Part shown: positions 3,480 to 61,118 of the stretch, one piece after another
Position numbering within the stretch: the first letter of the stretch is position 1
Layout: each line of letters begins with the position of its first letter
Source: a bacterium
GTDB taxonomy: Bacteria; Zhuqueibacterota; Zhuqueibacteria; Residuimicrobiales; Krinioviventaceae
NCBI GenBank assembly: GCA_963674595.2
Contig: CAXXFV010000026.1
Location: forward strand, 64,001-128,000
Direction: 5' to 3'
Length of the DNA stretch: 64,000 nucleotides
Notes under the pieces: generated by a model
Databases searched by the model: none
The model's input: only the letters and a program-made list of their open reading frames with translations
What the model was told of the DNA's origin: nothing
Made by a program: the position numbers and the translations under genes

Positions 3480-3671
3480 ACAATATTCTTTGATCGTTCA
3501 AGGGACGTTCAGGCTGAACAACCTGTGAATGACCACAATATTTCGGGGTAGATACCCCGTCTAATGGCGCCCCGGGAAAGATTCCCGGGGCGAGCTGGAA
3601 TTTTTTGCATATAAATATACCTCACCGCACCCACCAACTCTGTCTGTGAACCAACAAAAATATAATGTTGT

Positions 3672-3890
3672 AACCAACACAATCTATTTCCTCGTGTGTT
3701 ATATGTGCCCGTTTTTATAATATGGTGGAAAATCAGCAGAACCGTCAGGATTTCATGTGCTCGACCCAATTATCCTGAATACAGTCCCTTCCCGCTGATA
3801 AGTAATTGTACGAATTTTGTATTGTCGGAACAAGGGATTTTTAAAAAATGTGGAAAATAAGTTTTTAGGACAAAATATTAAACCCCTGCA
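3672..3890 (-). promoter_or_regulatory. Repeated promoter + hairpin leader + GTTR-core module, copy A
   Basis: -35 TTGTTC (3833-3828), 17 bp spacer, -10 TACAAT (3810-3805). Nested hairpin at 3732-3799. Core GTTGGTT at 3678-3672. Homologous to 27085-27308. Confidence 0.75.
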
Positions 3891-9505: not shown

Positions 9506-9843
9506 CTACTATCTTGCGACAGTTAATGTCTCATTGTATTTTAATTTATACTCAGCATTCCAAAATTACAGGGGTCGTTCGGATTTAGTCTATCGCGAAA
9601 GATTTGTCAAAAACATATCATTAATAATTATTGCCTGATTTTTAATAGATCAGTGGCAGTATATCTTTATAAAAAAAATTATTATAATTATATTTCACTA
9701 AAATTATGTTTTAAAAAATATGTTATGCAACTTGATTAAATGGACGGTTGATGTTTTTGAAATGATTTTTGCAAGTGATAAGCAGCATGACTCGCCTTGT
9801 CCGGCAAGCGTGAATATGAAATAAGAGGAATTTAGTTTTGGGA

Positions 9844-9985
9844 TTCATACAATTTTTTCCTCTGGCGGGTATTAGAGTTCAAGTCTGCAAAACTTGAGAG
9901 TTAACTAACTCGTCCTAAAAACAGGCCTTTATGGATGTTAAAATAATAATACGAACTTATAACTATCGGTGCAAGGAGTTTTTGA
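9844..9985 (-). promoter_or_regulatory. Repeated promoter module, degenerate copy F
   Basis: TTGCAC (9974-9969)-N17-TATTAT (9951-9946). Retains the GTCCTAAAAACAGGCCTTTAT and ACAATTTTTTCCTC blocks. Confidence 0.55.
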
Positions 9986-10228
9986 AAATTTTTAAGGATG
10001 TTGGCTGATTTTAGTTCTTTTTACAAAAAACGTTTGCAAATATAAAAAATAGTTCTAGTTTTTATATAACATGCTGCTGCTTAATTTGTGGAACAGAGCA
10101 GCACAACACCCGGGGTGAATGCCTTTTTTATTTATGTTTTGATTTTTCTCCCGGGGCGAGCAGGAATAAATGATAATAATAACAGCAGTATAGCATAATT
10201 CTTCTTGAATGGAAAGGGAAAAGGAAAC

Positions 10229-12181: not shown

Positions 12182-12224
12182 GAGTTGTTGTAAAAGTCCC
12201 AACCGCTGGAATAGGAAAATCAGT

Positions 12225-13338: not shown

Positions 13339-13392
13339 TTGTTAAATTGAATTCTATGGCAGATGCAGATTTATTACAGTTTATATCTGATT

Positions 13393-13526: not shown

Positions 13527-13550
13527 CTTTCTTAAGTATCAGGTTATGTT

Positions 13551-13919
13551 ATGGTAAATTTACGAATATTACGAGTTGTCCTTTTGTTTATTATTTTGAG
13601 CTGCTGCTGTTCATGTGATTATTCATATAGTTTAAAAATAGATGGATCTGCTGATCTTTATGTCGATGTAATAGAAAAGCCATTTTCTGGTTCTACTGAG
13701 TTTAATTATAAAGTACACATTCCATATTCAGATGATATATCCCAATATGCAGGGGAAAGATATAGAATAACAGTCAAAAAGACAACCCGAGAAGGTGAAT
13801 TGATTTTACGAATTGTTGAAGAAAAGAGCTCATTTTTTATTTTTAACAGTAATGGAGAGATATTTCGGTGTGAAACCACCGACTCTTGTGGTGTATGTAA
13901 GTATGACGGGTACTTTTAA
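13551..13919 (+). CDS. Hypothetical lipoprotein
   Basis: Hydrophobic signal ending SCCCSC. REP-flanked on both sides. Confidence 0.7.
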   Translation: MVNLRILRVVLLFIILSCCCSCDYSYSLKIDGSADLYVDVIEKPFSGSTEFNYKVHIPYSDDISQYAGERYRITVKKTTREGELILRIVEEKSSFFIFNSNGEIFRCETTDSCGVCKYDGYF

Positions 13920-13922
13920 TTT

Positions 13923-14047
13923 TGATCGTACAAAGGTACGGTTTATGATGAGGGCTTGGCCCTCCTGTTTTTAAGCTTTCAAGTTGTAATGTGAAAGGCA
14001 AAGTCTTTATTTTTAAGCGCGCAGAGGTAGGAAATTCTGTACAATCA
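13923..14047. repeat. REPIN, family II (TGAT...ATCA)
   Basis: Homologous to 36908-37034 and 35347-35444. Confidence 0.75.
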
Positions 14048-14094
14048 GTAGGTTACAAATTCCTGGATGATCACGATTTTAATAAAGGAAAAAT

Positions 14095-14829
14095 ATGAAA
14101 TCACTTATTCCATTTTTAATCGTATTTTTTATAAATTGTAGTGGTTATGTTACATCTCGTTTGTTTAAAACATCTCCTGAATTTAAATTTTCATTTAACA
14201 ATTGGGAAATTGATAAGATTAGTTTAGGGGCAAGTGATGCACTGAAGGAAATCGATTATTATTATAAAACTCATTTTTTTTGTGATTTTAAGCAAATTGA
14301 CAAAAAAAATAAAATTTTTCCATTCTTTAATAATGATTTGGTTGTTGATTCCATTTTCATTAAGGCTGAAGGCAATTTTCACAAAAGTGCACAGTTACAA
14401 AATGATTATGGAAGTATAAATAATATGTTTAATCTCGATAGTAGTATTTCCTTTGTTCAAATCCAAAAGTGTATCAGAGATAACAGTTATAAAATCACTC
14501 CCTATTCCAAATCTAAAGGTTCAATCGAACCATTTCTAATAACTCTTCCTTTGTTTAAGGAAAAAGGATGTGATTTTAATAAAGGTTTTTCTGATACAGT
14601 AAAAATTAATAATGCTAATGAATTGGAGCAATATGTCAGCTCATCCACAATTAAAGCTGGCAAAATTATGATTTTTAAGGATATATATATTCCACCTCAT
14701 ATAAAAACTTTAACGATATGTTTTCACGCGAAGATAATTAATAATTTTACTTTTGAAATTTTAGAAACAAAATATTTCGAGCATACACTATATAGAAAAG
14801 ATAAAAAAACATGGACTTTGGGTTATTAA
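14095..14829 (+). CDS. Hypothetical lipoprotein
   Basis: Lipobox FINC, AAAGGA RBS, AT-rich. Confidence 0.75.
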   Translation: MKSLIPFLIVFFINCSGYVTSRLFKTSPEFKFSFNNWEIDKISLGASDALKEIDYYYKTHFFCDFKQIDKKNKIFPFFNNDLVVDSIFIKAEGNFHKSAQLQNDYGSINNMFNLDSSISFVQIQKCIRDNSYKITPYSKSKGSIEPFLITLPLFKEKGCDFNKGFSDTVKINNANELEQYVSSSTIKAGKIMIFKDIYIPPHIKTLTICFHAKIINNFTFEILETKYFEHTLYRKDKKTWTLGY

Positions 14830-14883
14830 AAAGATAATAAACCATAATTCAAGTGTATCGTTTTACGGCTTTTTAATTATAAT

Positions 14884-15576
14884 TTATAACAACCTCACTC
14901 TTGTTAACAGTGAAAAACGTAAAATTTTAAAAGCGTTTGGGAACATTAAATAATCTCCTTCAATCGGAGTGCGTTCTTTGGCAGGAGAAAAAATGCTGTA
15001 TTCGCCCAGCACTATTAAAGAAACTCTTTGCCATACCGGTACTTTTAAAGATGCTCCCAAAACCAGGGAACTGTTCCAGTTTTCCATATAACGGTCCAGG
15101 TTTGTCCTGGTTTCGCTGATTTCAAAGGACGGGTATTCTGTTACATACTCTGTTTCCGGTGACTCTAGTTTGGATACATCTAAACCAAACAGGACTGTTT
15201 TTAAATATGGATTGTCGGATAATTTATAATTGAAAAGGACTTTGTAAGAGGTGCAGTCAAATTCGGTGTTTATATCATACCCAATGGGATTAACCATTTT
15301 GTCTTTTGACCGCAGAAGGCGAAACCCGCAGTGTGTAAAACCAGGCTCGAAACTGATGGACATTTTTTCCGTCAATACAATATCCAGATAACAGCCAACC
15401 AGGGGATAATATTTTGCCCTGACCTCATCGGGATTAAGGTATTCTCTTTCGACATTAACGGCAGTGGTCCTTGTAAAACCCCCTGTCAAACCAATGGATA
15501 TTCTTTTTACATTTTGACAGAACGCATTTGAATTGAGGCTGACAAGAACAGCCGTTATTAAAATTCTATATCGCAT
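14884..15576 (-). CDS. Outer-membrane beta-barrel (porin-family-like), paralog 1
   Basis: Signal peptide, IGLTGG, amphipathic strands. Paralog of 15607..16299. Confidence 0.75.
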   Translation of the reverse strand: MRYRILITAVLVSLNSNAFCQNVKRISIGLTGGFTRTTAVNVEREYLNPDEVRAKYYPLVGCYLDIVLTEKMSISFEPGFTHCGFRLLRSKDKMVNPIGYDINTEFDCTSYKVLFNYKLSDNPYLKTVLFGLDVSKLESPETEYVTEYPSFEISETRTNLDRYMENWNSSLVLGASLKVPVWQRVSLIVLGEYSIFSPAKERTPIEGDYLMFPNAFKILRFSLLTRVRLL

Positions 15577-15606
15577 ATCCTCTCCGTTGGTTGTTGGCTT
15601 TTGTCC

Positions 15607-16299
15607 TTAATACAGGTTTATTTTTGTCAAAAGTGAAATACGTGAAAATTTATAAGCGTTTGGGAATATTAAATAATCTCCTTCAGCCGGTTCTTGTTTT
15701 TTAACCGGAGAAGATAGACTGTGCTCGCCCAATAATACAAAGGAGACGTTATCCCATCCCGGAATTTTGAAGGATAGTCCGTAAACCAGGGAACTGTGCC
15801 AATTTTTCATATATCGGTCCAGGTTAGTAGCGGTTTCACTGATTTCGAATGACGTAAATTGTGTGGTATATTTGATCTTCGGCAATATAAGACAGGAATA
15901 ATCGATCCCAAACAGCACTGCCGGCTGAAACAGTTTTTTAAACAAAACATATTCTAATACAGCCCTGGAAGAGAAATAATAAAATCGGGCGTTTATATCA
16001 TAACCAATGGGATTAAATTTATCCTCTCGTGACCGGATGATGTGAAAACCATAGCCGGATAAAGATTGATCCAGGTTGATTGATAGATTTTGTATCAGGT
16101 TATAATCAAAATAATAACCGATTGAAGGTAAATATTTGTCTTTTATCTCATCAGAGGCAAAATAATTTTCCTTGATGTCATAAATAGATGTTTTGGAAAT
16201 TCCCCCTGTCAAACCAATGGATGATTTTTTTACGTTTTGACAAAAGGCACTTGAATTGATACTGACAAGAACAGCCGTTATTAAAATCGCATATCGCAT
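15607..16299 (-). CDS. Outer-membrane beta-barrel (porin-family-like), paralog 2
   Basis: Start moved to MRYAILIT after GGAG. Shares NPIGYDIN, SFEISET, NLDRYM and EGDYL with paralog 1. Confidence 0.75.
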   Translation of the reverse strand: MRYAILITAVLVSINSSAFCQNVKKSSIGLTGGISKTSIYDIKENYFASDEIKDKYLPSIGYYFDYNLIQNLSINLDQSLSGYGFHIIRSREDKFNPIGYDINARFYYFSSRAVLEYVLFKKLFQPAVLFGIDYSCLILPKIKYTTQFTSFEISETATNLDRYMKNWHSSLVYGLSFKIPGWDNVSFVLLGEHSLSSPVKKQEPAEGDYLIFPNAYKFSRISLLTKINLY

Positions 16300-16478
16300 A
16301 TCCACTCCACTGGTTTTAATTTTTGGTGTTAAAAAATGGTCCCGCAGCCATAAAAACCCCGATTTAATCATACCTTACGGTTAAAAAAGTAATCTATCAA
16401 AAACCGTGCATTCTGCACATTCGGCAGTTCTGCGTTTAAAAACGATGGTGTTGTAAAACCACACCCTGTCTGCCGCCG

Positions 16479-17180
16479 TTATCTATTCCACTTTTTATTA
16501 TAACACTTTTGCACCAGTGCCCTGCTGTTTGACGTTCCATGAGAGGGGAGAAACTCGTTACAGCCTGTTTGTAAAAGTTTTCCCCAGCTTTTCAGCATCA
16601 CATGTTCATCCTGCGCGTATGGAGGAAAAGCAGACCCTTTGAATATGCCGAACATGGTGTCGCCGACAATGGCGATTTCATCATCAATGATCAAACTCAT
16701 AGAGCCGATTGTATGTCCGGGAGTATGCATCAAATACGCATTAAATCCCAGGTCCTTAAAATTATAATCGGACTCGACAACAAAATCCGGTTGACAGGGT
16801 TTATATGTTAATTTTGCAATATAACGTTTGCCGATACTATTAACAATACGCCGCGTAATAGGATTTGTTCCCCGTGGCAAAATATTATCCCCGTTCAGCA
16901 AATTGTTTTCTTCCTCTTTATGAATAAATACGTTGGAGTTGTACGTTTCCCTGATTTTACAGGCATTGCCGGCATGGTCAAAATGCGCGTGGGTCAATAT
17001 CAGGTAATCCACGGATGTTATGTTCAGGCGGTTTAGGTTTTTTACAAGTCTGTTCCATGCGCCGGGCACAGAGGTGTCCACCAGGATATGGGTTGTGCTG
17101 TTGGTCAGCAGAAACACATTGCTTCTGCCGGACAAAATCCGGTAAATTGTATAACCGCTTTTTGTGGTCCATTTTTTCAT
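16479..17180 (-). CDS. MBL-fold metallo-hydrolase
   Basis: THAHFDHAG, TPGHT, GD, PSHG. Confidence 0.92.
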   Translation of the reverse strand: MKKWTTKSGYTIYRILSGRSNVFLLTNSTTHILVDTSVPGAWNRLVKNLNRLNITSVDYLILTHAHFDHAGNACKIRETYNSNVFIHKEEENNLLNGDNILPRGTNPITRRIVNSIGKRYIAKLTYKPCQPDFVVESDYNFKDLGFNAYLMHTPGHTIGSMSLIIDDEIAIVGDTMFGIFKGSAFPPYAQDEHVMLKSWGKLLQTGCNEFLPSHGTSNSRALVQKCYNKKWNR

Positions 17181-17288
17181 GGTTGTTCCTGATTGGTTGG
17201 TAAATTTATTTATGCCGGACCTGCAAAAACACAGAGGAGACGATCCTCTACGTTCTGCGACAGATAAAAGAAAAACGTATTGACGAGT

Positions 17289-18062
17289 TTATGAAATCCA
17301 CATTGGCCCACAAGGTTCCAGCCTCCATTTATTGTTTTCTTTTATACATTTGTAATAACCGCCAAAAGCCGCAAGCGGACCGGAATATAATTTATATCCA
17401 AAAATAATGTCATTATCCACCCGTTTAATGGGTGTAAACGTTAAAATACCTCTGTAATTGCCGATCACCATATAGTGAGAATCGATGACATCTGTGTTGT
17501 TGGAATAAAATTCATTTTCAATGCCGTTAGCACGCCAATCGTTTTGGAACAGGGATAATAATGAATCACTCATTGGCCGGATCGTTGGGGCACGATAATA
17601 GCACACTGAATGGTTACTATACAAGCTGTCGACAAGTATGCAGGGTGTGCACATATCAACAACGATTTTGTATATTTCATATTTCGTTTGGTCCGGCAGT
17701 GAATGATGGTAATCCAGACTCGCATATACAAACTTTATATCAAACGGTTTTTTATACAGTATTTCCTGATTTAAAATTTGGGGATGTTCGATGATTATAA
17801 TAAGCAAATATAAAAATAGAGAAATGGGAAGCACCGTTTTGACCAAAGAATATCTTTTTGTTTTTATGAAAAAAAATGTTAAAAGTTGAATAATGATAAA
17901 AATTATTATACCGGGTAAATTCACGTTCTTTAAGTAAAATTCTATTAATCCAAACATTTGGTGAGGGATAATTAATTTAAACAGTCCGGGAATGATAATA
18001 ACCAGATTGCAGATTATAATTAGCAGAGTAAGTGCCGAATATTTTAGTATGGATTTTATCAT
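17289..18062 (-). CDS. Hypothetical membrane protein
   Basis: Three N-terminal TM segments and a soluble C-terminus. Confidence 0.7.
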   Translation of the reverse strand: MIKSILKYSALTLLIIICNLVIIIPGLFKLIIPHQMFGLIEFYLKNVNLPGIIIFIIIQLLTFFFIKTKRYSLVKTVLPISLFLYLLIIIIEHPQILNQEILYKKPFDIKFVYASLDYHHSLPDQTKYEIYKIVVDMCTPCILVDSLYSNHSVCYYRAPTIRPMSDSLLSLFQNDWRANGIENEFYSNNTDVIDSHYMVIGNYRGILTFTPIKRVDNDIIFGYKLYSGPLAAFGGYYKCIKENNKWRLEPCGPMWIS

Positions 18063-18171
18063 GTTTGTTTAAGTCTACTTTTATAATATAAGAACGATGT
18101 TGCAGGTGGCCGTTTTATAAGCGACGTTTAATTATTATTTTTTAATTCAAAATATATGTACCGCAAAAATT

Positions 18172-18720
18172 TCACCAATTATAATTTAAACTGACTCCTG
18201 TACTATTCTTATTTCCAACAGGAGTAACTGAAAAATGTTTGTATGGCGAGGTAAAATAAGAGCTGCTTAAAATGCCGATTAATGCTCCGGCTGTAACGTC
18301 ATAAAAATCATGCTTGTCTGATTCTCCTTCAACCCGGCTCCAACCTACAAAACCGGCTGCTATATATGCCGGAATTCCAAATTTATTCCCATATCTTTTG
18401 TGTATAAATCGGGCCCCTTGAAATGCAGCGGCTGTATGGCCGGATGGAAAAGAGTAATCGCCGTTATTTTCCTGCCTCGGTTTATTGATGACATATTTTA
18501 ACAGATAGGTTACGCTGAAATTGGTCAAAAACGATTTGATAAATTGATTTCTGCCTTTGCCGTCATTTATTATGATTGTTGTTGAAAAAGCACAGGCCGG
18601 GATGAGTATCTGTGTTATATCTCCGGTTCTTTCAAAATTGCTTTTCGCTTTCGCCTGGGGTATACTAACAAGCATTGTAAATATTAAACTCAAAAGAATT
18701 AATAAATTAACTATTTTCAT
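18172..18720 (-). CDS. PAP2-family phosphatase (LpxE-like)
   Basis: LKYVINKPR, SFPSGH, SRV...HDFYDV motifs. Confidence 0.88.
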   Translation of the reverse strand: MKIVNLLILLSLIFTMLVSIPQAKAKSNFERTGDITQILIPACAFSTTIIINDGKGRNQFIKSFLTNFSVTYLLKYVINKPRQENNGDYSFPSGHTAAAFQGARFIHKRYGNKFGIPAYIAAGFVGWSRVEGESDKHDFYDVTAGALIGILSSSYFTSPYKHFSVTPVGNKNSTGVSLNYNW

Positions 18721-18786
18721 TACGAACTGTTCCTTATGGTTCTTTTATATAAGAACATAGCCAGGGTGCGACAGGGCCTGCTGTTT

Positions 18787-20118
18787 TTATAAATTTTCCA
18801 ATATATTAAGAAAACCCTGATAATGGATCTTTTGATACTTTATCAGCAATTTCTTGTCGGTTTTGTCATATCGGCACTTTTCAAGGTCATCCTTGTCAAA
18901 GGGGGCTTCCATGTCAAAGGCCGGTATACCCAATTCGCGGAAACACCAATCCGGCAGACTGCCGCTGGTGCACAGCGAAACGATTTTCGCCTGTTCTGAT
19001 GAATCGGAACCGGTGCCCTGCCAGTACAAATCAGCAAATTTGGAACACTGGTTCAGATAATCTTTGTCGTCCATCCCGACTTTGGATATCCCCAGCGTTT
19101 CTCCGGCAATGCTCGCCAGACAGTGAAATGAAAACACAGCCAGCGGATTGTTGCTTTTGATAAATTCCATCACGGCGACTGTCTCCGGCTCACTGCCTGC
19201 ATAGGGCCCGCGATAGGTCTGTGCATCGGGATCAGAGGTTTCGTAACCATAGGTCTGATCTACGTTGACCCAGTTGGCCGGAAAGTTCCGGTTCAGGTCA
19301 ACATCATTGGCGTTTCGCCGCAGATACCAGGGATTCCCATAGGCCAGTTTGTCGCGTCTGTCACAATTGACTGATGGAATGGCGATAATGGATACCTTGT
19401 TCAACAATTCCGCATGATTTTGAAGGAGCTTTTGCAAGAGGGGAAGGATTAATTCGGGTCCGGATTCACCGGCATGGACCGCACCGATAAGGGCAATGGC
19501 CTTTTTCCCGTGACCCGCTTTGAGCGCCATTAACGGTTTGCGGTTCACCGTTTTACCGATTTGTGCCACAACGACCTGGCCGGGGTAGAGGCTCTTTAAA
19601 TTTTCGATTTCCCGGACCACCTTTTCATAAGGCCAGCACACCTGCTGGTCTCTCACGTTGATTGCCAGCGGACCGATGGGCAGACCGTCGCCCGCCGCCA
19701 TCCAATAGGCATAGGTGGAGCCGGTTTCGGCAGTCTCATCCGTAAAGGTGAACTTGGCGTCCACCAGGGGCGTTATTTCCCCCTTAAAAATACAGTCCGC
19801 ATCTTTATAATTCAGACCGGGAAAATATTCATTATAATCCTTGCCGAATACAAAATCAGGACATGCCAGACGATAGATTTTAATCTCTTTAAAAAGGCTG
19901 TCCTGCTCTGCTTTCATATAGCGGATGGCTTTATAGGCTGATACAATAACCTTACCGTCATCAGTGTGAATATTCGCATGACGCAGCGTTACAAGTTTAT
20001 TGTCCTTTGGTGATTGGGCCAGGCACGGATTTGAAACACAGCACAGATATAATAACAATCCCATGGTAAAAAAGGCCGGAAAAAAAGGGCGCAGCAGTGT
20101 TATATTTTTAGAAAACAT
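18787..20118 (-). CDS. M14 zinc carboxypeptidase family protein, exported
   Basis: HAGE, RRNANDVDLNRNF, SEPET, FH. Confidence 0.9.
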   Translation of the reverse strand: MFSKNITLLRPFFPAFFTMGLLLYLCCVSNPCLAQSPKDNKLVTLRHANIHTDDGKVIVSAYKAIRYMKAEQDSLFKEIKIYRLACPDFVFGKDYNEYFPGLNYKDADCIFKGEITPLVDAKFTFTDETAETGSTYAYWMAAGDGLPIGPLAINVRDQQVCWPYEKVVREIENLKSLYPGQVVVAQIGKTVNRKPLMALKAGHGKKAIALIGAVHAGESGPELILPLLQKLLQNHAELLNKVSIIAIPSVNCDRRDKLAYGNPWYLRRNANDVDLNRNFPANWVNVDQTYGYETSDPDAQTYRGPYAGSEPETVAVMEFIKSNNPLAVFSFHCLASIAGETLGISKVGMDDKDYLNQCSKFADLYWQGTGSDSSEQAKIVSLCTSGSLPDWCFRELGIPAFDMEAPFDKDDLEKCRYDKTDKKLLIKYQKIHYQGFLNILENL

Positions 20119-21013: not shown

Positions 21014-21136
21014 CTCGCTCGCAGGGGATATGCAATCCCCTGAGGAATCAATGAAAAGGGGATTGTATCCCCATTCCAAATATCTGAAAAAATCAATTTA
21101 TAAACAATTAGAACATTTCCGATTTTACGATGTTCT
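21014..21136. repeat. Direct-repeat copy of the RAYT 3' end plus cognate REP
   Basis: CTCGCTCGCAGGGGATATGCAATCCCCTGAGG...GGGGATTGTATCCCC...TTAGAACATTTCC...GATGTTC matches 23887-23978. Confidence 0.85.
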
Positions 21137-22262: not shown

Positions 22263-23804
22263 TTAATTTCCTGATTTTTTATAGTATTTTCGGATATTAA
22301 ATGCCAAGCATAGCAACCCAAATTCATGGTTTACTTTTTCAATTCCCCTTAAACTAAATTTACTGAATTTTTGGTTTTTTTTGAAATCAGCAAACGGGGT
22401 TTCCACTTCATTGCCTCTTTTTTTACGGAGTTTTATACCTTTTTCAGAATTCAAATTCTTGCGGGCTTTTGCCTTGAATTTTTCCAATTCACGATTTATC
22501 TGCACTGTTCGATTTCCGAAACCTCTTTTACATTTTTCTGCATGCGGACAACCGTCACAATCTTCACATTCATAAACACGCTGTTGATTGAGGAACCCTG
22601 TTGCTGTTGTTCTGGTCCTTATATCCCGGAACCAAAGCGCTCTGTCTGCGGGACAATAGAAGCAATCCTGCTGCTCATCATATCTCATATTATCTCGATG
22701 AAAGATATTTTGACGAAAACTACGGCTTTGTTCTCGATGGAACGAACCATATTTCAAAAAGTTTTCTATTTTATATTCAGACAAAAGTAAATAGTTTTCA
22801 TGATTGCCATAGCCACAGTCTCCGGTATAGGTCTCTGGAATAAATTTTTCATTCCGCTTGACGATCTTGAAAAGATGGGCTGGAAAGCTGGCTGAGTCCG
22901 ATGCATTTTGACCAACAGAATAATTGACAAGAAATTGGTGGTTGGTACTGATTTGCACATTATAGGCAGGCCGAAGCGTTTCATCTTTCATTCGCATAAA
23001 GGTCGCGTCGGTGTCTGTTTTGGAATAAGAGTTGCGTCCGGCAAGTTTATTTTCCTGGTCCTCATATTTGGCCAATTTTTCCGATTCCTTCTTTAGCTTG
23101 TTGGCCCGGCTTTTTAAAGAGCGGGCCTTTTTCTTATTCCCTTCTTTTTCCAGTCGTTCGTTGATTTCTTCTGCAACCTTTTCAATGTTCTCAACCGTGA
23201 TGTCCGAATGCTCTCCCCGTTCCGGTAGATCGCTTTCCCCATATTTCAAGTCCTCTTCAGCATTAAGCTCATCAATCTCGTGAAATAGGGATTGGACCCG
23301 TTGCTTTACAGCGGCTTTATAACGTTCGGTATTTTTTCTCCACACGTAGGTGTATTTACCTGCGTTTGCCTCAAATTTACTGCCATCAACAAAATAATCT
23401 TTTAAATCAATATAGCCTTCTGCTTCTAAAAACAGCAATACCTGGCTAAAAATATCTTCCATCGTGTTGCGAAAGTACTCACTGCGAAAACGATTTACTG
23501 TATTAAAATCAGGACGGCTCATACCGGAAAGCCACATAAAGGGTAAATCTTCACGCAGTGCTTTGGCGATTTTACGACAACTATAAATATGGCAAATATA
23601 AGCATATAAAATAACTTTGAGCATCATTCGCGGATGATAGGACGGTGTGCCGCCTCCGCTAAAACGATCTTCTATGGATTTTGAAGAAATTCGATCTATT
23701 ACAGAATCCAATACCCGGACCAGATGGTTTTTGTCTATAAATTCATCCAGGCTCGGTGGCAATAACATTATTTGGTTCTGATGGACTTCTCTAAACTTTT
23801 TCAT
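22263..23804 (-). CDS. IS1182-family DDE transposase
   Basis: YHPRMMLKVILY, PDFNTVNRFR, VDGSKFEANA, SKTDTDATFMRMK, AYNVQ, DCGY, CEDCDGCPHAEKC, VETPFADFK. Confidence 0.95.
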   Translation of the reverse strand: MKKFREVHQNQIMLLPPSLDEFIDKNHLVRVLDSVIDRISSKSIEDRFSGGGTPSYHPRMMLKVILYAYICHIYSCRKIAKALREDLPFMWLSGMSRPDFNTVNRFRSEYFRNTMEDIFSQVLLFLEAEGYIDLKDYFVDGSKFEANAGKYTYVWRKNTERYKAAVKQRVQSLFHEIDELNAEEDLKYGESDLPERGEHSDITVENIEKVAEEINERLEKEGNKKKARSLKSRANKLKKESEKLAKYEDQENKLAGRNSYSKTDTDATFMRMKDETLRPAYNVQISTNHQFLVNYSVGQNASDSASFPAHLFKIVKRNEKFIPETYTGDCGYGNHENYLLLSEYKIENFLKYGSFHREQSRSFRQNIFHRDNMRYDEQQDCFYCPADRALWFRDIRTRTTATGFLNQQRVYECEDCDGCPHAEKCKRGFGNRTVQINRELEKFKAKARKNLNSEKGIKLRKKRGNEVETPFADFKKNQKFSKFSLRGIEKVNHEFGLLCLAFNIRKYYKKSGN

Positions 23805-23950
23805 CCGCTCCTACTCGTATTACTTTCCTTTTTTTAAAATTATACTTATTTTTTATCTTATTATAAAGAACTTTTGATACAGCCCCGAAACCAATGAAAA
23901 GGGGATTGCATCCCCAATCCAAATATCTGAAAAAATAAATTTATAAACAA

Positions 23951-24496
23951 TTAGAACATTTCCAGTTTTTCGATGTTCATAATCGAATGATCATCGAGAA
24001 TGTAATTACGTGCGCTGCTGTATTGCTAATCTTCAGGACTGGCAACAAAGCCTTTTCTGCCCGGATTATGGTGCATATATAACAGCTTTTGGCGGCAAAC
24101 TTTTTCCGTATATAAAATTTGGGGATGATATTCATCCTGCCATATTTTATATTTGCGGTCTCCCGTTTCGCTTTCGGCTGTTTTTTTGAAAACATACAGT
24201 AATAATTTTTGATTATCTTTTTCCATCTCGTTTGAAATCGCTTTGGATGTATATTTCTTCATATCACGCATCACGTCCTGAAACCGAAATCCTATGTCGG
24301 TTTGGGCTATCAAGTGAAAGTGATTAAGCATAATCACATAACCAGAAACATGCAAACCTTTATTTTCTCGGCAATATTTGAGACTGTCAATAATGATTTG
24401 AAAATATCTCTGTTCAACAAAAACCGGCAGCCATTCTATGATCGTGTGAGTAGTGAAATAAATACCATTTTCATCTATTGTTTTATATCTTCCCAT
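23951..24496 (-). pseudogene. REP-associated tyrosine (Y1 HUH) transposase, RAYT, with an in-frame TAG
   Basis: YFTTHT, YVIMLNHFHLI (HUH), KIWQDEYH, YMHHNP. TAG at 24026-24028 sits where W of WxYSSA is expected, and the frame continues QYSSARNY...EMF* to 23951. Confidence 0.88.
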
Positions 24497-24553
24497 TAAA
24501 GGCCCCTTTTAAGTATCGTTTTAAGGAGTTCGATTTCAGTTCGTTGAGTACAG

Positions 24554-24621
24554 GGCATCAGGGAATATAATTCCCAATACCATTTGTTCCGCAGAGGATT
24601 GCAAATCCTCTGCGAGCGAGG
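24554..24621. repeat. RAYT-cognate REP, inverted copy upstream of RAYT
   Basis: CGCAGAGGATTGCAAATCCTCTGCGAGCGAG plus the small GGGAATATAATTCCC hairpin. Confidence 0.85.
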
Positions 24622-24629
24622 TTAATATA

Positions 24630-25913
24630 TCAATCAATATTATTTATCTTCTTTAAATAGTCAAGCTTTTCTTGGATCAACTTAATATCAAAACTTATTG
24701 TATCAGTTGTAATTTCTTCGCTGTATTTTTTATTGAACAGACATTGAGCATAGGTGTGATATATTGGCACTTTAAAGCAAAATTTTGAAGACCTTTTTAA
24801 TATAATACCACCTTTTTTACTTGTTGTTAATGATTTTAGATAAGTGGACAAGTTCCCTGAAGGATAATTAGGTTCATATTTATGGATTTTTGAAAGTATA
24901 TCGTTATATTCTGCGCCTTCAATATCAAATTCTGATAGAGCTCTAAATATGAGTTGTGCGTTTTTAAATTTTCCTTTTCTCTGTTCTAGAGCGTTTTCAA
25001 AATCTGATTGTATTGTATCTGATGAATCATTGACATAAGCTTCAATTGCTGATTTTAATGCCTCTTCTGTTACTCTTATTTCTTCTTCTTCGTATACATA
25101 TCTATTCAAATTGAAGCAGACATGTAAACATATTGAGTGACAAACCGAAGGGACACCATTTGCTAATTTTACAATCCTCTCAATTAAGAAATTCGGCATT
25201 ATAATATTTAATTGAGAAAAGCCCATTGTTGGTATTTGCCGTATTTCGTCATCCGTCATTAGTGGTACAAAGATTTCAGCAACTCTATTTTTTAGTTCAA
25301 CGTCAAATTGTATTACCTCCCTTCCTGTTCCTACAGCTCCAATACAAATAATTTTTATATCAGGATACTCTTCTGCCATATCCATAAAGAGTTTCATTGA
25401 TTGAGATAGCTTTGATTTTTCGGTTTCTAAAACTTTATGAAAATCTTCAAGAACTAGACAACATTTTGCATTTCCTAAAAATCTAGCCAGTGTTTGAATC
25501 GTTAACATCGGCGGAATAATCCTTTTGAGTGATTCTGATTTATCTTGTGAGCTTGAACGACCTAATTCTGCTTTAATTAATTTGTAATCTGACGATAGTT
25601 TCATTGATTTCTGTGTACTTGTACTATTTGTTGTACTATCCATATAAAAAGGATTCAACTCATCAAAAGCTTGCAAAATTAAGTCTTCATATGTTAAACT
25701 TGCAGTGCATCTTACAGTGATATGATCTTCATATATTTGATGTAATTTATTAACTATTAAGGTTGTTTTTCCGCTCCCAGAATGTCCATAAATTACGATC
25801 TGTTTACCGGGAGTTCTTAATGAGTTTACAATTTGACTATCGACTGATGATCGTTCTACAAACGTTAATCTTGCTGGAGTTGATGGGGTAAAAACTTTAA
25901 TAGCTTCTACCAT
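24630..25913 (-). CDS. P-loop AAA+/STAND-like ATPase with a probable winged-helix C-terminus
   Basis: Walker A GHSGSGKT, Walker B LVLEDFH, AT-rich. Confidence 0.85.
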   Translation of the reverse strand: MVEAIKVFTPSTPARLTFVERSSVDSQIVNSLRTPGKQIVIYGHSGSGKTTLIVNKLHQIYEDHITVRCTASLTYEDLILQAFDELNPFYMDSTTNSTSTQKSMKLSSDYKLIKAELGRSSSQDKSESLKRIIPPMLTIQTLARFLGNAKCCLVLEDFHKVLETEKSKLSQSMKLFMDMAEEYPDIKIICIGAVGTGREVIQFDVELKNRVAEIFVPLMTDDEIRQIPTMGFSQLNIIMPNFLIERIVKLANGVPSVCHSICLHVCFNLNRYVYEEEEIRVTEEALKSAIEAYVNDSSDTIQSDFENALEQRKGKFKNAQLIFRALSEFDIEGAEYNDILSKIHKYEPNYPSGNLSTYLKSLTTSKKGGIILKRSSKFCFKVPIYHTYAQCLFNKKYSEEITTDTISFDIKLIQEKLDYLKKINNID

Positions 25914-26057
25914 ATTTTGTTCCTCACTTTAATGTAGCATACAGTTCAACTATTATCTTCAATTAATTATATAATGCTGCGATAAAACCACAGCCTACTT
26001 GATGAATGTGTCTGTAAAGAAAACATGTAGTTCTTCACGTCCATATACATGAAATTG

Positions 26058-26991
26058 TTAAATATTTAATTGCATTAATAGACTGTAAGAATTTGAATAT
26101 ATTTGTTCATGTGAATGCAATAAGATTTGATTATTATAATAATCAACATCGCTTTTGTTTAATGTGTAATTTTTTTTATTTGACATATTTATCATTATGA
26201 GAGATCAATATAGCAAGTTTGGGTGATATTGGATAATAGATTTCCATATCTGTAACAGGTGTAGAAGTATTCGTATGTGAAGCTTTCGCCAAAATGTTAA
26301 TTACAGGTTGATCTCCTGTTATCAATGAATTAAAGGTATCATTCTCAAACAATGTTAATTTAAATTCATCCTTATGAATAAATAAGTAATTTGCTATATT
26401 TAAAGCAAACATGTGACTCAGCACATTCCAAATGTTATTTATGTTGATACTATTAGTATCTTTTATAGTTGATACTATATTTGATTTCATTTTTTTTGTT
26501 CTAAAGTATTGTGTACAAAGAAATATTAAAAATGTCAAGTACTCTTCATCTAAATTCACAAAATTAGTATTTTTATTTAGCAGTGAATGAAGATGTGATA
26601 TAGAATCTTGTTCAATTTTTGTATGAAAGTCTTCTGCTAGGTTATTTATAGCTATATCGATTTCTTTAAGATAATTATTATCGTTATAGCCATTTAAATC
26701 TAACAAATCAATCATCCTGAAAATTGAATTAAACAAAATTAAATAATCGTGTTGAAGTGGTTGTAAATGTTTTGGAGAATTATTAATAAAATGTTTTAAA
26801 AAATTGATATCATTTGTAGATAATCGTTTTAATCTATAGAAGTTCCTCATAACACCTACGCGATTTAATTTTGGATTGAATATCTTTTTATCTCTTAAAC
26901 AATATAATTTGTCATTTTTTGTCCATGGCTTCAAGTAATGTTGCCAAACATAATGTTGGTTTTTCTTTTTTTGTATGAATAATTTTTTCAT
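26058..26991 (-). pseudogene. DUF4238-domain protein, frameshifted near 26180
   Basis: NQHYVWQHYLKPW, QYFRT, ITGDQPV, YPISPKLAI. The family-like tail DVDYYNNQILLHSHEQIYSNS continues in another frame to TAA at 26058. Confidence 0.78.
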
Positions 26992-27084
26992 TTTAATAGA
27001 TATGTAACATAATATTAAACAAATCTGTTAGCTACCTAAAAATTATTAGATCGTGTCATAAAATTTAATTCAATATAATTTTCT

Positions 27085-27308
27085 AGCCAACACAGTCTTT
27101 CCTTATATGTGTTATTAAATCCCGCAGATAAATAATAAAGTGGAAAATCAGCAAAAGTATTATCAGGAACTCCCGTGCGCGACCAAATTATCCTGAAAAC
27201 AATCCTTTATAGCTGATAGCGAATAATACAAATTCTGAATTATCGGCGCAAGTGGTTTTTCAAAAATGTTGAAAACAAGCCAAGGGTCCAAAATTTCGAA
27301 CCCCTGCA
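27085..27308 (-). promoter_or_regulatory. Repeated promoter + hairpin leader + GTTR-core module, copy B
   Basis: TTGCGC (27251-27246)-N17-TATTAT (27228-27223). Hairpin at 27147-27217. Core GTTGGCT at 27091-27085. Confidence 0.78.
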
Positions 27309-27311
27309 GGA

Positions 27312-29459
27312 TTATTTTTGAATGACCTCAAACAAAACCCCGTCATATTTATTGTCAATTTTTACACGGAATCCCTTTTGCATCAACTCTTTGCCGGACA
27401 ATTCGGCGACAATTTCATTTGAAATTTCCCTGCGAACCAGGTATGTTTTGTCCGGGTGTAAATATCTCACAAACACCTGCCGTTCTGTTTCCAGCGCGCC
27501 GTGACGGAACACGCCCACCAGTCCGCCGGATTGGGTTTCGGTGTTGATGCGCTGATAACCGTCCCATTGGCCTTCATGGGGCTCGCCGAATCCGGCCAAA
27601 TCCTGACGAAACAGCATGTAATTGTGTTTTGTTTGCAGTTCGTGCAGCCAGTGTGACATGCTTTTGATCCAGGCCTGGTCGTCTTTTGCAATTGCTAAAA
27701 TTTCACCGAGAACAATGGGAAAAACCCCGGCCACAGACCGGATGTGCAGCCGGTAATAAGGATCGTCCAGTTGCAGGTTGCCGATGACACAGGCGGATGC
27801 GGGAAGGGTCGGCGAAACAAGCCAGGCCAGGTTTCGGGCCTGCAGCGCGCCCACCGGACCGCGTTCATAAATGTTGGAAAGCCAGTTGCCTTCGGCGTGT
27901 TTGCACATGTCGTAATCAATCAAATGCGAGGCGCCCATGGTTTCATAGGTACAGTCGATAAAAAGCTCAGGGAATTGCCGGTGCAGGTCGTCAAACACCT
28001 GCCAGGCCGAACGGTAAATCGGCAGGTACGAATCATTCTGATCACGGTGCCCCGGATGGTTCGTTGCATGGCACCCGGACATGTCCCGGTCGTACATATA
28101 GGCGCTGGTGGCAATTGCCAGGTCGAGTTTGACATAATTTAAATCCAGGGCCTTTACCTTTTCGGCAATAACGTCCCGGATATAATCCGCCCAACCGGTT
28201 GTCATGCAGGCGGTTACATTGGCCGGCTGGATGCCGTGCACACACATGGGCTGACCGTTTTTGTCCAGAATAAACCAGTCGGGATGTTCTTTATAAACCG
28301 CACTGTATTTTGACGCCATTGCCAGACTGAGCCACAAACCCCGGCGCAGGCCTTTTTGTTTGATATAGGAATATACCGACTCCAGTCCGTTGGGGTATTT
28401 TTCAGGATTGACAACATAATCCCCGCATTTAAAGGCCCAATCCACATCCTTTTTCGTATCTTTTATCGTATACCAGCCCGCATCCAGGGTGATCTCTTCT
28501 ATGCCGCATTCGGCGGCAGCATCGGTCAGTTTTCTTAAAAGCGAGTCATCCACGGTAGCGCGGTAGGGTTTCCAGTGATTGTATGCCAGCGACGGAAAAT
28601 GAGACACCGTTGCCAGGCGAATACCCATATAGCGCCGTGTAAAATCCTGCACCGGCCCCTCGATAGCCTGAAACGGATCATCGGTATCGCGATACAGGCA
28701 CAAAAACGTCCAGGGACTTGTCCAGCGTTCCTGCGGTTCAAGCCATTTGCGAAAGGCATATTCCTGGTCCGCATGGGTAAGACCGATGGAAAAATTAAAA
28801 GCGTCGGTAAAAGTGCTGATGCGTTTAATAACGCCCGGCGTTTCATTGCCAAGCACCAGGCCCCGTTTTTCTTCAACATGGTGGAGCGCCACAGCCGGAT
28901 CGTGCCAATTGCCCGGATAGGGACCTGTTACCTTGTGTCTGGCATAATTGGTCATGGAATAACAGCGGCCGTCCCTGTCAAAAAACTCTAAATTTTCAAC
29001 ATCCACTGCTTCAAGATTGATGTCCTGATCGCCCATATTGACAACCGCCAGTTTTTTGCGGATGACAGGCGTTTGGGGATAAAGCAGGTAGGTAATTTCA
29101 AGGACAAGCCTGGGGGACCGGTTTCTTTCAAGGGTCACCGTGGCGCCGTTGCCCTGATGTTCATCGGCTGCCTTTTTGATGTTTTTAAGCGTCCATCCGT
29201 CCATACCGGATATGGGCAGATCATCGCATTCAAAATAAAATTCGTTGCTGCTGTTTTGGACAAAATTCGTATCCCCTTTGCAGAATGCCAGTCTTGATGT
29301 GGAGACAGATGTTTTTTGCGGATTGAACTGAATGACCCGTTTGACCAGGCCGTTATCCAAATTCAATTGCGAATCGTCCCAGGAGGCATAGTCACCGGCA
29401 CATAATAAAGAGGCAAACAACATGATTAAAAGCGAAAATACCGATAACATCTGTTTCAT
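27312..29459 (-). CDS. GH36-like alpha-galactosidase, exported
   Basis: Signal peptide, YNHW, LDAGW, GDY...KYPNGL, GLW, YVKLD, GH36 C-terminal LHPDKTY. Confidence 0.85.
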   Translation of the reverse strand: MKQMLSVFSLLIMLFASLLCAGDYASWDDSQLNLDNGLVKRVIQFNPQKTSVSTSRLAFCKGDTNFVQNSSNEFYFECDDLPISGMDGWTLKNIKKAADEHQGNGATVTLERNRSPRLVLEITYLLYPQTPVIRKKLAVVNMGDQDINLEAVDVENLEFFDRDGRCYSMTNYARHKVTGPYPGNWHDPAVALHHVEEKRGLVLGNETPGVIKRISTFTDAFNFSIGLTHADQEYAFRKWLEPQERWTSPWTFLCLYRDTDDPFQAIEGPVQDFTRRYMGIRLATVSHFPSLAYNHWKPYRATVDDSLLRKLTDAAAECGIEEITLDAGWYTIKDTKKDVDWAFKCGDYVVNPEKYPNGLESVYSYIKQKGLRRGLWLSLAMASKYSAVYKEHPDWFILDKNGQPMCVHGIQPANVTACMTTGWADYIRDVIAEKVKALDLNYVKLDLAIATSAYMYDRDMSGCHATNHPGHRDQNDSYLPIYRSAWQVFDDLHRQFPELFIDCTYETMGASHLIDYDMCKHAEGNWLSNIYERGPVGALQARNLAWLVSPTLPASACVIGNLQLDDPYYRLHIRSVAGVFPIVLGEILAIAKDDQAWIKSMSHWLHELQTKHNYMLFRQDLAGFGEPHEGQWDGYQRINTETQSGGLVGVFRHGALETERQVFVRYLHPDKTYLVRREISNEIVAELSGKELMQKGFRVKIDNKYDGVLFEVIQK

Positions 29460-29564
29460 TTCAGGATACCTCCGTGCAGCGCGTTATGGCTGTTGTGATT
29501 TTGGGTTATATGGGGATGTTTTTTTACCGGTTACCGGCATGGTGCCGTTCCGGTCCGCATGGTA

Positions 29565-29630
29565 AAAATACAAAAGAAAAAAACAGATTGCCAGTGTAAA
29601 AATTTATAGGAGGGAGGGGGATAGCTGATT
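29565..29630 (-). promoter_or_regulatory. Second repeated promoter module, copy 2
   Basis: AAAATACAAAAGAAAAAAACAGATTGCCAGTGTAAAA plus a G-rich tract. Confidence 0.65.
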
Positions 29631-49361: not shown

Positions 49362-49384
49362 TGTTGGTCCATTTTTATGTAGAG

Positions 49385-49502
49385 AACATCACCTAAAGGA
49401 CATAAGAAATTTTCATACTTAACCAAATTGTCCTAAAAAAAATCGTTTATGACTGATATTAGAATAATACAAATTCTGTTGTACCGGCGCAAGAGGGTTT
49501 TG
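49385..49502 (-). promoter_or_regulatory. Repeated promoter module, degenerate copy E
   Basis: TTGCGC (49492-49487)-N17-TATTAT (49469-49464). Remnant ACCAAATTGTCCTAAAA and CTGAT blocks. Confidence 0.6.
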
Positions 49503-49667
49503 AATAAAAATTATCCTTTTTCCTGATTTGTTGTGGTGTGAAGCGTTGCCGGAACGTTTGTTTTTTATATAAAAACCGCCCCGGCAGGATTCCCGGTGCG
49601 GTTGGAATAGTTTATTTTACAAGAGATGCAGCACATGGTAGAGGCACGATTCATGGCGCCTCTGCGA

Positions 49668-52540: not shown

Positions 52541-52661
52541 AACTCTCCTGAAATTCAAAATCTTCGGTTTTTGGAGTAGAGTCTTTAGGGGCTGTTTTAT
52601 GGCACTATTTAATTTTTTCTATTTATCTCTGAATGGTACGCGATATTACCGTACTCTTTGC

Positions 52662-52800
52662 TACCCGTTTTAATATCCTGATTGAAAATCCGCAGGACTG
52701 CCAGAACCTTGTATGCTCGACCAAATAATTTTTAAAAACAGTCCTTTACGGCTGATAATGAATTATACAAATTCTGTGATATTGGCGCAAGGGGTTTTTG
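52662..52800 (-). promoter_or_regulatory. Repeated promoter + hairpin module, copy D
   Basis: TTGCGC (52790-52785)-N17-TATAAT (52767-52762). Stem AGGACTG/CAGTCCT and loop TTGGTCGAGCA. Confidence 0.72.
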
Positions 52801-53144
52801 ATATAAATATTTAAATCCCCGAGGAGTTGTTTTTTGTTTGCAGTTGCTAGTGCAGCATCATTAAAATGGCTGGTCTACTGATTATCATTAAAAGAGTTCG
52901 ATATTAAAAAACCAGACTACACGTTTCAAATATCGCAAGTGCCGTTTGAATTAACAGGCCCTATTATTTGAAATAACAAACCTGCTTTTGGTATTTATTC
53001 TTTTTCGGACTCGACATCTTTTATTTGTTAGAGGCATTTTCTACCCGACTGAAAGCCCAGTTGCAGGATGGACCATTTTGGCCCATCATTTAATTGATAT
53101 AAAAATCTGTGGTGTTTGTCTGTACACATCTTTTCGTGTTATTT

Positions 53145-60613: not shown

Positions 60614-60874
60614 TTCTGAATCATGTCATGTGATCTCTATCAGCATAAACCAACGAACTGTGCCGTATGTTGATTTATTACTTTGTATTGTGTTGTCAGG
60701 ATAAACGTACTGTTTCGACTTTTTCCCGCTCAGATTGTTTATAATGTTGTAATTTTAGTACGTTTTTTGCCGGTTTTAATAAAATTTTGGTAATGTGGCA
60801 CAATGTGCCTGAATAAACAGAGTTTTTCGGATATTTTTCATCAACAGTACTACATCTGAGTATTTGGATGTTGT

Positions 60875-61045
60875 CACTAACACAATTTTTTTTGTTCGTA
60901 CTATTAGTACCCGTTTTTATAAAATGGTGGAAAATCAGCAAAAGACTGTCAGGGTTCCCGTGGTTGATCACATGATCATGGGAAGTAGTCTTTTATGGCT
61001 GACGTATGGATAATACTAATTCTGAGGTAAAGGTGCAAGTTAATT
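60875..61045 (-). promoter_or_regulatory. Repeated promoter + hairpin leader + GTTR-core module, copy C
   Basis: TTGCAC (61038-61033)-N17-TATTAT (61015-61010). Hairpin at 60934-61003. Core GTTAGTG at 60881-60875. Confidence 0.75.
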
Positions 61046-61118
61046 TTATATAAAGTTTAGGGATTTCCCCCCTGGTTTAAAACCCCCGTTTATAGTGTTG
61101 TGAACGATACTTTTCTGT

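Follow-up and report, generated by a model that had tools for sequence, protein, structure and literature searches.

Does the segment at positions 26057-27120 of this 64,000-nucleotide (nt) stretch of contig CAXXFV010000026.1 (the window) hold an integron recombination site with captured gene cassettes, or a repeat of another kind? The segment overlaps copy B of a module of which a preliminary description had recognized three copies, A, B and C. It had interpreted them as scattered attI sites with a cassette promoter (Pc), devoid of an integrase and each ending at a GTT core followed by cassette-like units. Our analysis leads, on balance, to a different reading, in which the module, dispersed and lineage-restricted, joins a promoter to a leader and forms a portable 5' regulatory region ahead of accessory gene blocks. 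One of its copies lies directly upstream of the gene for an integron integrase (intI, encoding IntI).

The module was searched for in the window's own genome (6.6 Mb in 37 contigs). With blastn, 41 module matches were retrieved, with copies that were 70-83% alike, and three rounds of nhmmer (E ≤ 1e-3) gave 91, 133 and then 138 matches. A longer nhmmer profile (E ≤ 1e-5) produced 116 matches, with six, all of them minus-strand, in the window. As had been claimed, copies A, B and C are clearly homologous (mean column identity 70%); the three copies are thus real, but the window contains six and the genome 138. The unit is approximately 280-300 nt long, many copies are truncated, and the copies are concentrated on few contigs (C29, C26, C13, C18, and C3). 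Those in the window are:

3600..3879, minus strand: module copy A, full length with G-rich tail (168.5 bits); the GTT core proposed at 3678-3672 is mid-copy
9784..10015, minus strand: fourth copy (88.7 bits, longer profile)
27072..27311, minus strand: module copy B (nhmmer 27293-27072, 170.8 bits; longer profile 27311-27072, 166 bits)
49369..49536, minus strand: fifth copy, promoter and palindrome part only (blastn and nhmmer)
52657..52828, minus strand: sixth copy, promoter and palindrome part only (blastn and nhmmer)
60867..61080, minus strand: module copy C, 3'-truncated and diverged, ahead of a 614-amino-acid (aa) protein with a type IX secretion system (T9SS) tail (profile search)

The family consensus starts with an A/T tract, CTTGC, 17 nt, and TAttAT, and the A/T tract of this promoter-like part is the 5' limit of family homology. 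It continues with a 73-nt imperfect palindrome (ATCAGC..AAAGGAC..TCAGGA, loop TTTGGTCGnnCAyGGGAG, TCCTGA..GTCCTTT..GCTGAT), 3' of which come TTTaCCAC, an A/T spacer of variable length, and GGGATT..ACACACGAGGAAGAGATTG. The leader carries a GAGGAA Shine-Dalgarno (SD) sequence and a TTG, a conserved AUAUUCCUGUU able to pair with the SD, and a short, decayed, indel-broken frame after the TTG with a strongly conserved CATATTCCTGTT. Most copies then read …GGTCAAAATTATTGGGTTGGGTGGGGTGTG, with a G-rich tail, and similarity fades beyond; no terminator was found after this tail. Conservation is block-wise (-35, -10, palindrome, SD-TTG, and ATATTCCTGTT), and the spacers between blocks vary in length. The aligned module ends are fuzzy, with no terminal inverted repeats visible. 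In copy B, where family homology fades at ~27072, the main parts are:

27223..27251, minus strand: promoter-like core read from the sequence, TTGCGC (27251-27246), 17-nt spacer, and TATTAT (27228-27223), preceded by an A/T tract
27147..27217, minus strand: conserved imperfect palindrome at the predicted transcript start, with three short helices and a conserved loop of ~22 nt (pairing and covariation)
27085..27103, minus strand: SD-like AGGAA (27103-27099), CTG in place of the family TTG (27095-27093), and the proposed core GTTGGCT (27091-27085)

The promoter-like motif TTGnnn-(16-18)-TAnnAT was present in 96 of the 100 copies covering that part, with a spacing of exactly 17 nt in 95, and in 48 of 984 control windows upstream of other genes (~5%, same 16-18 nt spacing). 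For the 80 copies scoring at least 80 bits, the downstream gene was co-directional with the module in 76, while the upstream gene was co-directional in 65 and divergent in 15. The earlier proposal of a multicopy module with a promoter-like motif aimed at downstream genes is therefore borne out by the 138 matches, the 76/80 orientation, and the 95/100 motif count. That 53 of the window's 61 genes lie on the minus strand is nothing special, given that neighbors are co-oriented in 82.4% of pairs genome-wide.

Genes with their own start lie 50-300 nt past the module leader. Among the 76 downstream genes, 31 had no Pfam family at E ≤ 0.001 and 10 encoded T9SS sorting tails. The other domains found were TIR, GmrSD, type I restriction R subunit (HsdR), SNF2 helicase, KAP NTPase, Schlafen/AlbA_2, Gp49 (twice), caspase, Bro-N, RHS, DUF4238, two Y1 transposases, and an IS3-type HTH. 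Mean GC content was 0.409 upstream and 0.349 downstream of modules, being lower downstream in 59 of 80 cases, and the mean absolute GC difference across a module was 0.083, as compared with 0.041 at 873 control intergenic sites.

Some arrangements of modules deserve mention in their own right. At two sites, divergent modules are paired back-to-back ~100 nt apart (C29:96478-96945 and C29:44562-44967). Four near-identical modules spaced 1-2 kb apart occupy C29:46587-51147, where at least two precede Gp49 (HigB-like) genes; this array consists of tandemly amplified module-plus-small-gene units. The two Y1 genes directly behind modules are at C23:97828-98376 and C16:570891-571181.

The absence of an integrase from the preliminary description does not hold for the genome, which encodes a full-length IntI. 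Its adjacent region is homologous to the module, as the same description had thought possible:

C3:115823-116767, minus strand: intI, full length, the only one in the genome over cut-off (TIGR02249, 453.7 bits; cut-off 265)
C3:116981-116780, minus strand: module copy directly upstream of intI on the same strand (163.8 bits)

Twelve further TIGR02249 matches in the genome were all below the cut-off. The SD and TTG of this module are the start of intI, and the putative promoter, the leader, and the start codon of the gene, together with its first 10 to 17 codons, all come from the module. The short frame of the other copies translates as MRRSQNHIPVISRSKLLGWV…, and IntI begins with MHLVEDHIPVVKPIKLLEQ…. 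The in-register identity of 61 copies to intI was 0.7-0.9 up to nt 30 and ~0.5-0.7 at nt 43-52 (the K-L-L codons), and then dropped to background. Because the short frame of the copies matches the start of intI, and because the conserved IntI core of the two nearest relatives likewise starts with K-L-L-(D/E)-Q, the module may have descended from the intI 5' region; intI could also, in the reverse direction, have acquired the module. The gene is flanked upstream by a phage- or satellite-like block (integrase, YqaJ, RecT, TerL gpA, and a 64-aa open reading frame [ORF]) and downstream by a gene for a T9SS-tailed protein, with no cassette array on either side.

The upstream block (C3:117000-132410; tyrosine integrase, HTH, YqaJ, RecT, Lin1244_N, TerL gpA, the 64-aa ORF, and a terminator) terminates right where the intI module begins on its 5' side. 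Its last genes recur, with a similarity of ~90% or higher, in at least three further copies, each of which stops at a module of its own (next to C25:5518, C10:52147, and C9:142260), and the modules of this group have a distinct promoter spacer in common. A second gene type likewise ends at modules (C3:77739, C9:127565, C5:26419, and C29:7138). At C6:1525-1860, a decayed module is followed by the first ~130 nt of intI and then by a methyltransferase gene, which makes it a second, broken module-intI junction. Approximately 8 kb from intI, at C3:98000-108050, lies a CRISPR-Cas adaptation block with Cas6, a Card1-type CARF nuclease, Cas1, and Cas2, which also holds a 990-aa reverse transcriptase fused to an AEP/TOTE-type primase domain.

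The module was not detected by nhmmer (E ≤ 10) in any of 80 loci encoding related IntI proteins (best 73% and 69% identity) or by blastn in any of 40 relatives. A covariance model of the palindrome core found 69 copies in the genome itself and none in 42 other genomes of the order. IntI over the cut-off was present in 18 of the 43 genomes of the order, this one included (17 of the 42 others). We therefore rejected the notion that the module is an ancestral part of the integron. On inspection by eye, the two closest intI loci had in common only a generic A/T-rich promoter look, and no repeat arrays lay beside them. Phage and plasmid records gave no module match. A metagenome search with the melibiase-family protein encoded upstream of module B reached at best 64% identity and returned no near-strain contigs; in the 23 loci retrieved, both the module and an 85-nt palindrome described below were absent.

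The segment that raised the question, read on the minus strand, comprises the 3' third of copy B (27120-27072), an AT-rich leader, a DUF4238 gene, and possibly a frameshifted tail of that gene. It is the decayed 3' part of a module with a leader and a gene behind it, not a cassette array. The features of the locus are:

27312..29459, minus strand: melibiase-family glycoside hydrolase gene upstream of module B, conserved in the related strain (domain search)
27281..27306, minus strand: terminator-like hairpin and T-run behind the melibiase-family gene (terminator scan)
26992..27071, minus strand: unique AT-rich leader of 80 nt from module B to the DUF4238 start, containing AGCTAAC and GTTACAT
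26176..26991, minus strand: DUF4238 gene, 271 aa as assembled, profile matched only to position 243 of 281
26058..26183, minus strand: possible frameshifted DUF4238 tail behind an A8 run, open for 41 more codons, with its TAA inside ATTTAAC
24630..25913, minus strand: AAA-type ATPase gene (ATPase_2/AAA_16), second gene behind module B (domain search)
24586..24620, minus strand: repetitive extragenic palindromic (REP)-like palindrome at the far end of the stretch that is non-alignable in the related strain (sequence; match of run X6 at 23893-24620)
24026-24496, minus strand: Y1 (IS200-like, RAYT-type) transposase gene (PF01797, E 2e-5), flanked by REP-like palindromes

The DUF4238 ORF as assembled stops at 26178-26176. 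The A8 run (~26176-26183) coincides with breaks, at 26181/26183, in contigs of the source-sample run X1, and could reflect a frameshift, run-length variation, or an assembly error. The 41-aa continuation alone had no Pfam match. By blastn, 34 nt of the copy B leader are similar (85%) to C29:86327-86360, in the leader of a GmrSD gene that another module precedes.

A comparison of strains was possible at this one locus, with contigs aligned at 85% or more. One 6677-nt contig of a related strain (run X6) matches 23893-24620 and 27161-29583 at ~97% identity, and contains 2940 nt of unlike sequence in place of the 2540 nt present here (ATPase, DUF4238, and 3' half of module B). A contig of run X7 begins matching at 27162. 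The related-strain match starts at 27161/27162, inside the conserved palindrome, and the limits of the variable block are the module palindrome on one side and the REP-like palindrome on the other. What the preliminary description had anticipated for related genomes is borne out insofar as the stretch downstream of module B is not alignable in this strain; the block thus appears to be strain-variable, or at least strongly diverged. Such a difference fits homologous exchange between dispersed repeats and leaves room for a site-specific event beside GAGTTCCTGA. Two other candidate signals were discarded. Joints in run X1 (e.g., 21100->27162 and 27237->29650) have sides of 24-37 nt in repeats and were taken for cross-matches with other loci. 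Within the genome, pairwise breakpoints fell at alignment columns 240-249 in 68 of 101 cases, without clustering at the palindrome, but a few truncated copies account for most of them, so that a recombination hot spot was not accepted.

Is the module nonetheless an attI-type site? The six 7-mers on which this idea was based are exactly where they had been reported: GTTGGTT at 3678-3672, GTTGGCT at 27091-27085, GTTAGTG at 60881-60875, AGCTAAC at 27033-27027, GTTACAT at 27008-27002, and ATTTAAC at 26063-26057. None of the three supposed cores fits GTTRRRY, a deviation that had been conceded from the start. Similarity does not end at them: profiles of all copies align A to 3600 (~70 nt past), B to 27072 (~13-20 nt past), and C to 60867, and most other copies are likewise homologous for ~70 nt past the GTT. 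In the corresponding register, 51 near-full copies have GTC in 19 cases and GTT in 6, and the triplet falls within the decayed short frame, 2 nt past the conserved SD-TTG (in copy B, GTTGGCT is bases +5 to +11 of this frame). With GTT in 6/51 copies and homology continuing 13-70 nt beyond it, the triplet lacks the character of an attI core. The TAACAC-N15-GTGTTG inverted repeat exists in A and B, as stated, but is no family feature, the consensus reading ACACACGAGGAAGAGATTGCGTCGG there. The pairing of boxes as in circularized cassettes is at chance level, with 100 strict GTTRRRY matches in the window and 137 ± 12 in shuffled sequence; since GTT/AAC triplets occur at ~39 per kb, pairings of 6 of 7 positions are expected by chance. 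ATTTAAC does overlap a TAA, but this ends DUF4238 only with a frameshift at the A8 run. The module had also been thought to start at CTGCAGGGGTT..., which is instead part of the hairpin and T-run of the melibiase-family gene; CTGCAGGGG at the 5' edge is the terminator of that upstream gene or a REP-type hairpin, and the copy B profile match takes it in.

The position of the module with respect to intI is also not that of Pc-attI. It is co-directional with the gene, faces it, and reaches into the beginning of its coding sequence, whose start codon it provides; this is the place of Pint and the 5' untranslated region. Given that the 7-mer cores, the boundary, and the boxes fail, and that the module faces intI, the attI-type claim is not supported. 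Against a G^TT crossover followed by cassettes speak a GTT that is neither conserved nor the end of homology and the failure to find, in a scan of limited sensitivity, an attC-like array in the window or near intI. The module was not shown to be attI; two other GTTs conserved in it (GAGTTCCTGA and CCTGTT) are at most candidate junctions.

For the attC search, the reference was a canonical integron found in G040, a relative from the same order. Its intI is divergent from a row of ORFs with seven GC-rich imperfect palindromes that have RYYYAAC and GTTRRRY-like boxes:

G040, C6:474000-493999, region 9092-19000: attC-like palindromes at 13695-13815, 14476-14556, 15576-15647, 16047-16120, 17071-17199, 18001-18128, and 18810-18941

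Our crude scan accepted boxes with at most one deviation, forced AAC/GTT pairing, and a single hairpin of at most -0.33 kcal/mol per nt. On the 20-kb G040 locus, it recovered 3 of the 7 sites and one other match, which indicates limited sensitivity. On both strands of the 6.6-Mb genome, it gave 40 scattered matches, of which 36 were inside genes, none was in the window, and none was less than 70 kb from intI. In 26057-27120, it detected, at this sensitivity of 3/7, no gene cassette with attC (ORF plus a palindrome of ~57-141 nt with RYYYAAC/GTTRRRY). The absence of clustered attC-like matches in the genome speaks against a CALIN arrangement (at least two attC, no nearby intI). In the sense of IntegronFinder, as given in a passage of PMC4889954, In0 denotes intI without recognizable attC. 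The intI locus is In0-like, with an IntI profile match and no recognizable attC within 70 kb, given the limited sensitivity of the scan.

A second repeat family was observed in the window, an ~85-nt imperfect palindrome with two 23-nt arms (GCAGGGTGyGGTTCTACCGCACC… and its inverse), each forming a small hairpin. Of its 33 matches in the genome, most share their contigs with the modules. In the window, it occurs as follows:

1409-1492, 2717-2783, 3148-3231, and 11298-11381: full copies
3883-3921, 10808-10844, and 46378-46431: half copies

Behind module A, this palindrome lies at the stop codons of small ORFs (81-129 aa), and one unit made of an ORF and this palindrome occurs twice in tandem (2723-3144 and 3172-3600, 79-94% identity). 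In their layout these units recall cassettes, but the boxes are not RYYYAAC/GTTRRRY.

Turning to the conserved palindrome within the module, its cells were paired in 81.9% of cases, compared with 25-46% when partners were slid, and its covariation score was equaled in 3 of 500 shuffles. RNAalifold on 65 copies predicted no structure; on the whole leader of 25 copies, the sole helix predicted was that between the SD (AGGAA) and a conserved UUCCU (SD/anti-SD). Rfam had no matches at the gathering score in the window, and five module loci gave three weak matches off the module (E 0.06-0.2).

According to the reading that we favor, the sigma-70-like promoter would start a transcript at the conserved imperfect palindrome. 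The leader would then present the SD and TTG, the SD-pairing segment, and the G-rich tail, with the real gene beginning 50-300 nt further on. One member of the family provides the putative promoter, the leader, and the start of intI, the genome's sole integron integrase gene. A single type of 5' region, common to the integrase gene and to more than 100 accessory genes, would place them all under joint regulation. The copies might also serve as portable homology, such that recombination in the conserved core and in REP-type repeats at the far end would swap the block between strains. The data themselves show the family, the orientation of its copies, the conservation of the motif, the membership of the intI copy, and the difference between strains at copy B; that the units are active promoters, that the genes behind them are co-regulated, and how the copies spread and are exchanged is what we infer here.

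Several points weigh against this reading. Module promoter activity and the transcript start are predictions from sequence, a look-up of RNA runs for 24600-29500 having returned none that contains this stretch; the 9-of-12 sigma-70 rule does not flag the copy B promoter, whose -35 matches at 3 of 6 positions, and scoring was for the sigma-70 type, which may not be the promoter type of the host's phylum. For the palindrome, RNAalifold on its alignment returned no pairs, folding z-scores were -2.37, -0.92, -0.38, +0.06, and +1.08 (the last from a badly cut segment), and mutual information over 51 copies gave a subfamily signal with no clean helices. Because of the RNAalifold result, the unremarkable z-scores, and the subfamily-only mutual information, we treat the role of the conserved palindrome as unproven. 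The reading does not by itself account for the making of more than 100 copies, and no terminal inverted repeats were seen. Finally, exchange rests on one locus, where the unmatched 2940 nt could be a diverged allele and not other genes, and the breakpoint at 27161/27162 in two runs is beside a conserved GTT (GGGAGTTCCTGA), making a site-specific event possible.

Such an event leads to the alternative closest to the original proposal, in which IntI would serve the modules in trans as a kind of distributed integron, with crossover in the palindrome (…GGGAG^TTCCTGA) or at …ATTCCTG^TT placing blocks behind a ready promoter. The genome does encode an intact IntI whose own 5' region is a family member, and a second, decayed module-plus-intI fragment begins at C6:1525. 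The strain match starts, in two runs, right after the conserved GTTCCTGA arm, ~6-10 copies, including that of intI, lose homology right after ATTCCTGTT, and the downstream DNA is AT-richer and of defense or accessory type. A further point in its favor is that, in published work (PMC2811028), only three nucleotides are reported as common to attC and attI. However, no partner sites were found, the crude attC scan (3/7 sensitivity) yielding 40 scattered matches with none in the window or within 70 kb of intI. In most copies the module extends 150 nt beyond the palindrome, something that a crossover at that place would not predict, and intra-genome breakpoints do not cluster at the palindrome (68/101 at columns 240-249). 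The module faces intI and not away from it, and the canonical integron of the relative (divergent intI, RYYYAAC/GTTRRRY attC) has no module. We consider this alternative highly improbable. The broader version, with IntI or another recombinase acting in trans on a site in the palindrome or leader of more than 100 platforms and slotting foreign, AT-rich gene blocks, many of them defense genes, behind a ready promoter, is a shade more improbable still. If it were correct, capture would take place all over the chromosome and not in a single array, and the integrase gene itself would sit behind one of the platforms.

A non-autonomous mobile element with an outward promoter, similar to a miniature inverted-repeat transposable element (MITE) or a REPIN and copied by a transposase encoded elsewhere, e.g., Y1 (RAYT/IS200-like), is unlikely but would explain the high copy number in one lineage only and the clustering on C29, C26, C13, and C18. 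Y1 genes and REP-type palindromes are abundant and often beside or behind modules, and Correia, ERIC, and REPIN are precedents for promoter-bearing repeats in the passages available from PMC3575422. Nevertheless, the copies are only 70-80% alike and retain conserved blocks where uniform decay would be expected, their ends are fuzzy with no visible terminal inverted repeats, and the 76/80 gene-ward orientation suggests selection for function over random insertion. The essential product could instead be the RNA, as a cis-regulatory leader or small RNA with one common factor, the DNA promoter being secondary. Here, ~200 nt conserved past the predicted start, the palindrome pairing (81.9% versus 25-46%), the conserved loop, and the SD/anti-SD pairing are set against the lack of an Rfam match, weak covariation, folding energies near those of shuffled sequence, and the lack of a terminator after the G-rich tail, and we judge this option decidedly unlikely. 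Lastly, the copies might be neutral and now functionless, old duplicates of the intI 5' region that rearrangements have taken with them. The decayed, indel-broken frame and the many truncated copies are what relics would look like, but promoter hexamers and spacing are kept in 95/100 copies, orientation is gene-ward in 76/80, and conservation is block-wise, which leaves this explanation with a very slim chance of being correct.

If the promoter-plus-leader reading holds, which of the known systems does the module resemble? Correia, ERIC, and REPIN elements are intergenic and multicopy, have the potential to form hairpins, and may influence how neighboring genes are expressed. The module is likewise intergenic, multicopy, and potentially hairpin-forming; unlike in these elements, neither terminal inverted repeats nor sharp ends were seen in it, and it is much longer than REP, and is strictly gene-oriented, and the REP/RAYT elements of this genome are families separate from it. 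The 5' leaders of IS200-type elements combine a 5' hairpin with pairing that sequesters the ribosome-binding site. In the module, a putative hairpin near the 5' end and a predicted pairing able to hide the SD correspond to these, whereas its TTG is not followed by a Y1 transposase frame and the frame resembles the N terminus of IntI. As compared with an integron platform, the likeness consists in a bona fide intI with no recognizable attC (In0) and a module that is proximal to intI and holds a promoter-like motif. The differences are that the module is co-directional with intI, contains its start codon, and exists in more than 100 further copies away from intI, that neither a GTTRRRY core nor attC partners nor a cassette array was found, and that the canonical integron of the relative lacks it. 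The closest described kinds would be putative mobile promoters and promoter-bearing interspersed repeats, judging from passages of PMC3575422. Putative mobile promoters, or promoter reuse, are presented there as highly similar 5' regions before unrelated genes in one genome, sometimes with RNA motifs, and similar 5' regulatory regions before unrelated genes are also what the module provides. It differs in that the family has more than 100 copies of ~300 nt with 70-80% identity in one lineage, heads an integron integrase gene, and sits at compositional junctions ahead of accessory DNA.

On the same reading, more than 100 accessory genes (defense-type genes, T9SS cargo, toxin-antitoxin parts, transposases, and an orphan integrase) would be under one 5' region, an unusually large and recently built regulon made by copying a promoter and not by evolving binding sites. 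Since modules coincide with junctions in base composition and, in at least one case, with a slot that varies between strains, accessory DNA may be exchanged along them as homology anchors. For integron biology, the locus advises caution, because 7-bp cores in AT-rich DNA mislead and a repeat common to intI need not be attI. It also provides a test case of an In0-type intI whose 5' region is a dispersed repeat.

Other features of the window may be added. Beyond the variable block behind module B, a 90-nt direct repeat (92% identity; 21046-21135 and 23889-23978) brackets an insertion sequence with a DDE transposase (22263-23804), which is missing from the related strain's contig. A run of T9SS-tailed secreted proteins (phosphatases, LRR, beta-helix, and PKD) occupies 37000-60700. 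The direct repeats D2 and D3 of the window are explained by T9SS C-terminal sorting domains.

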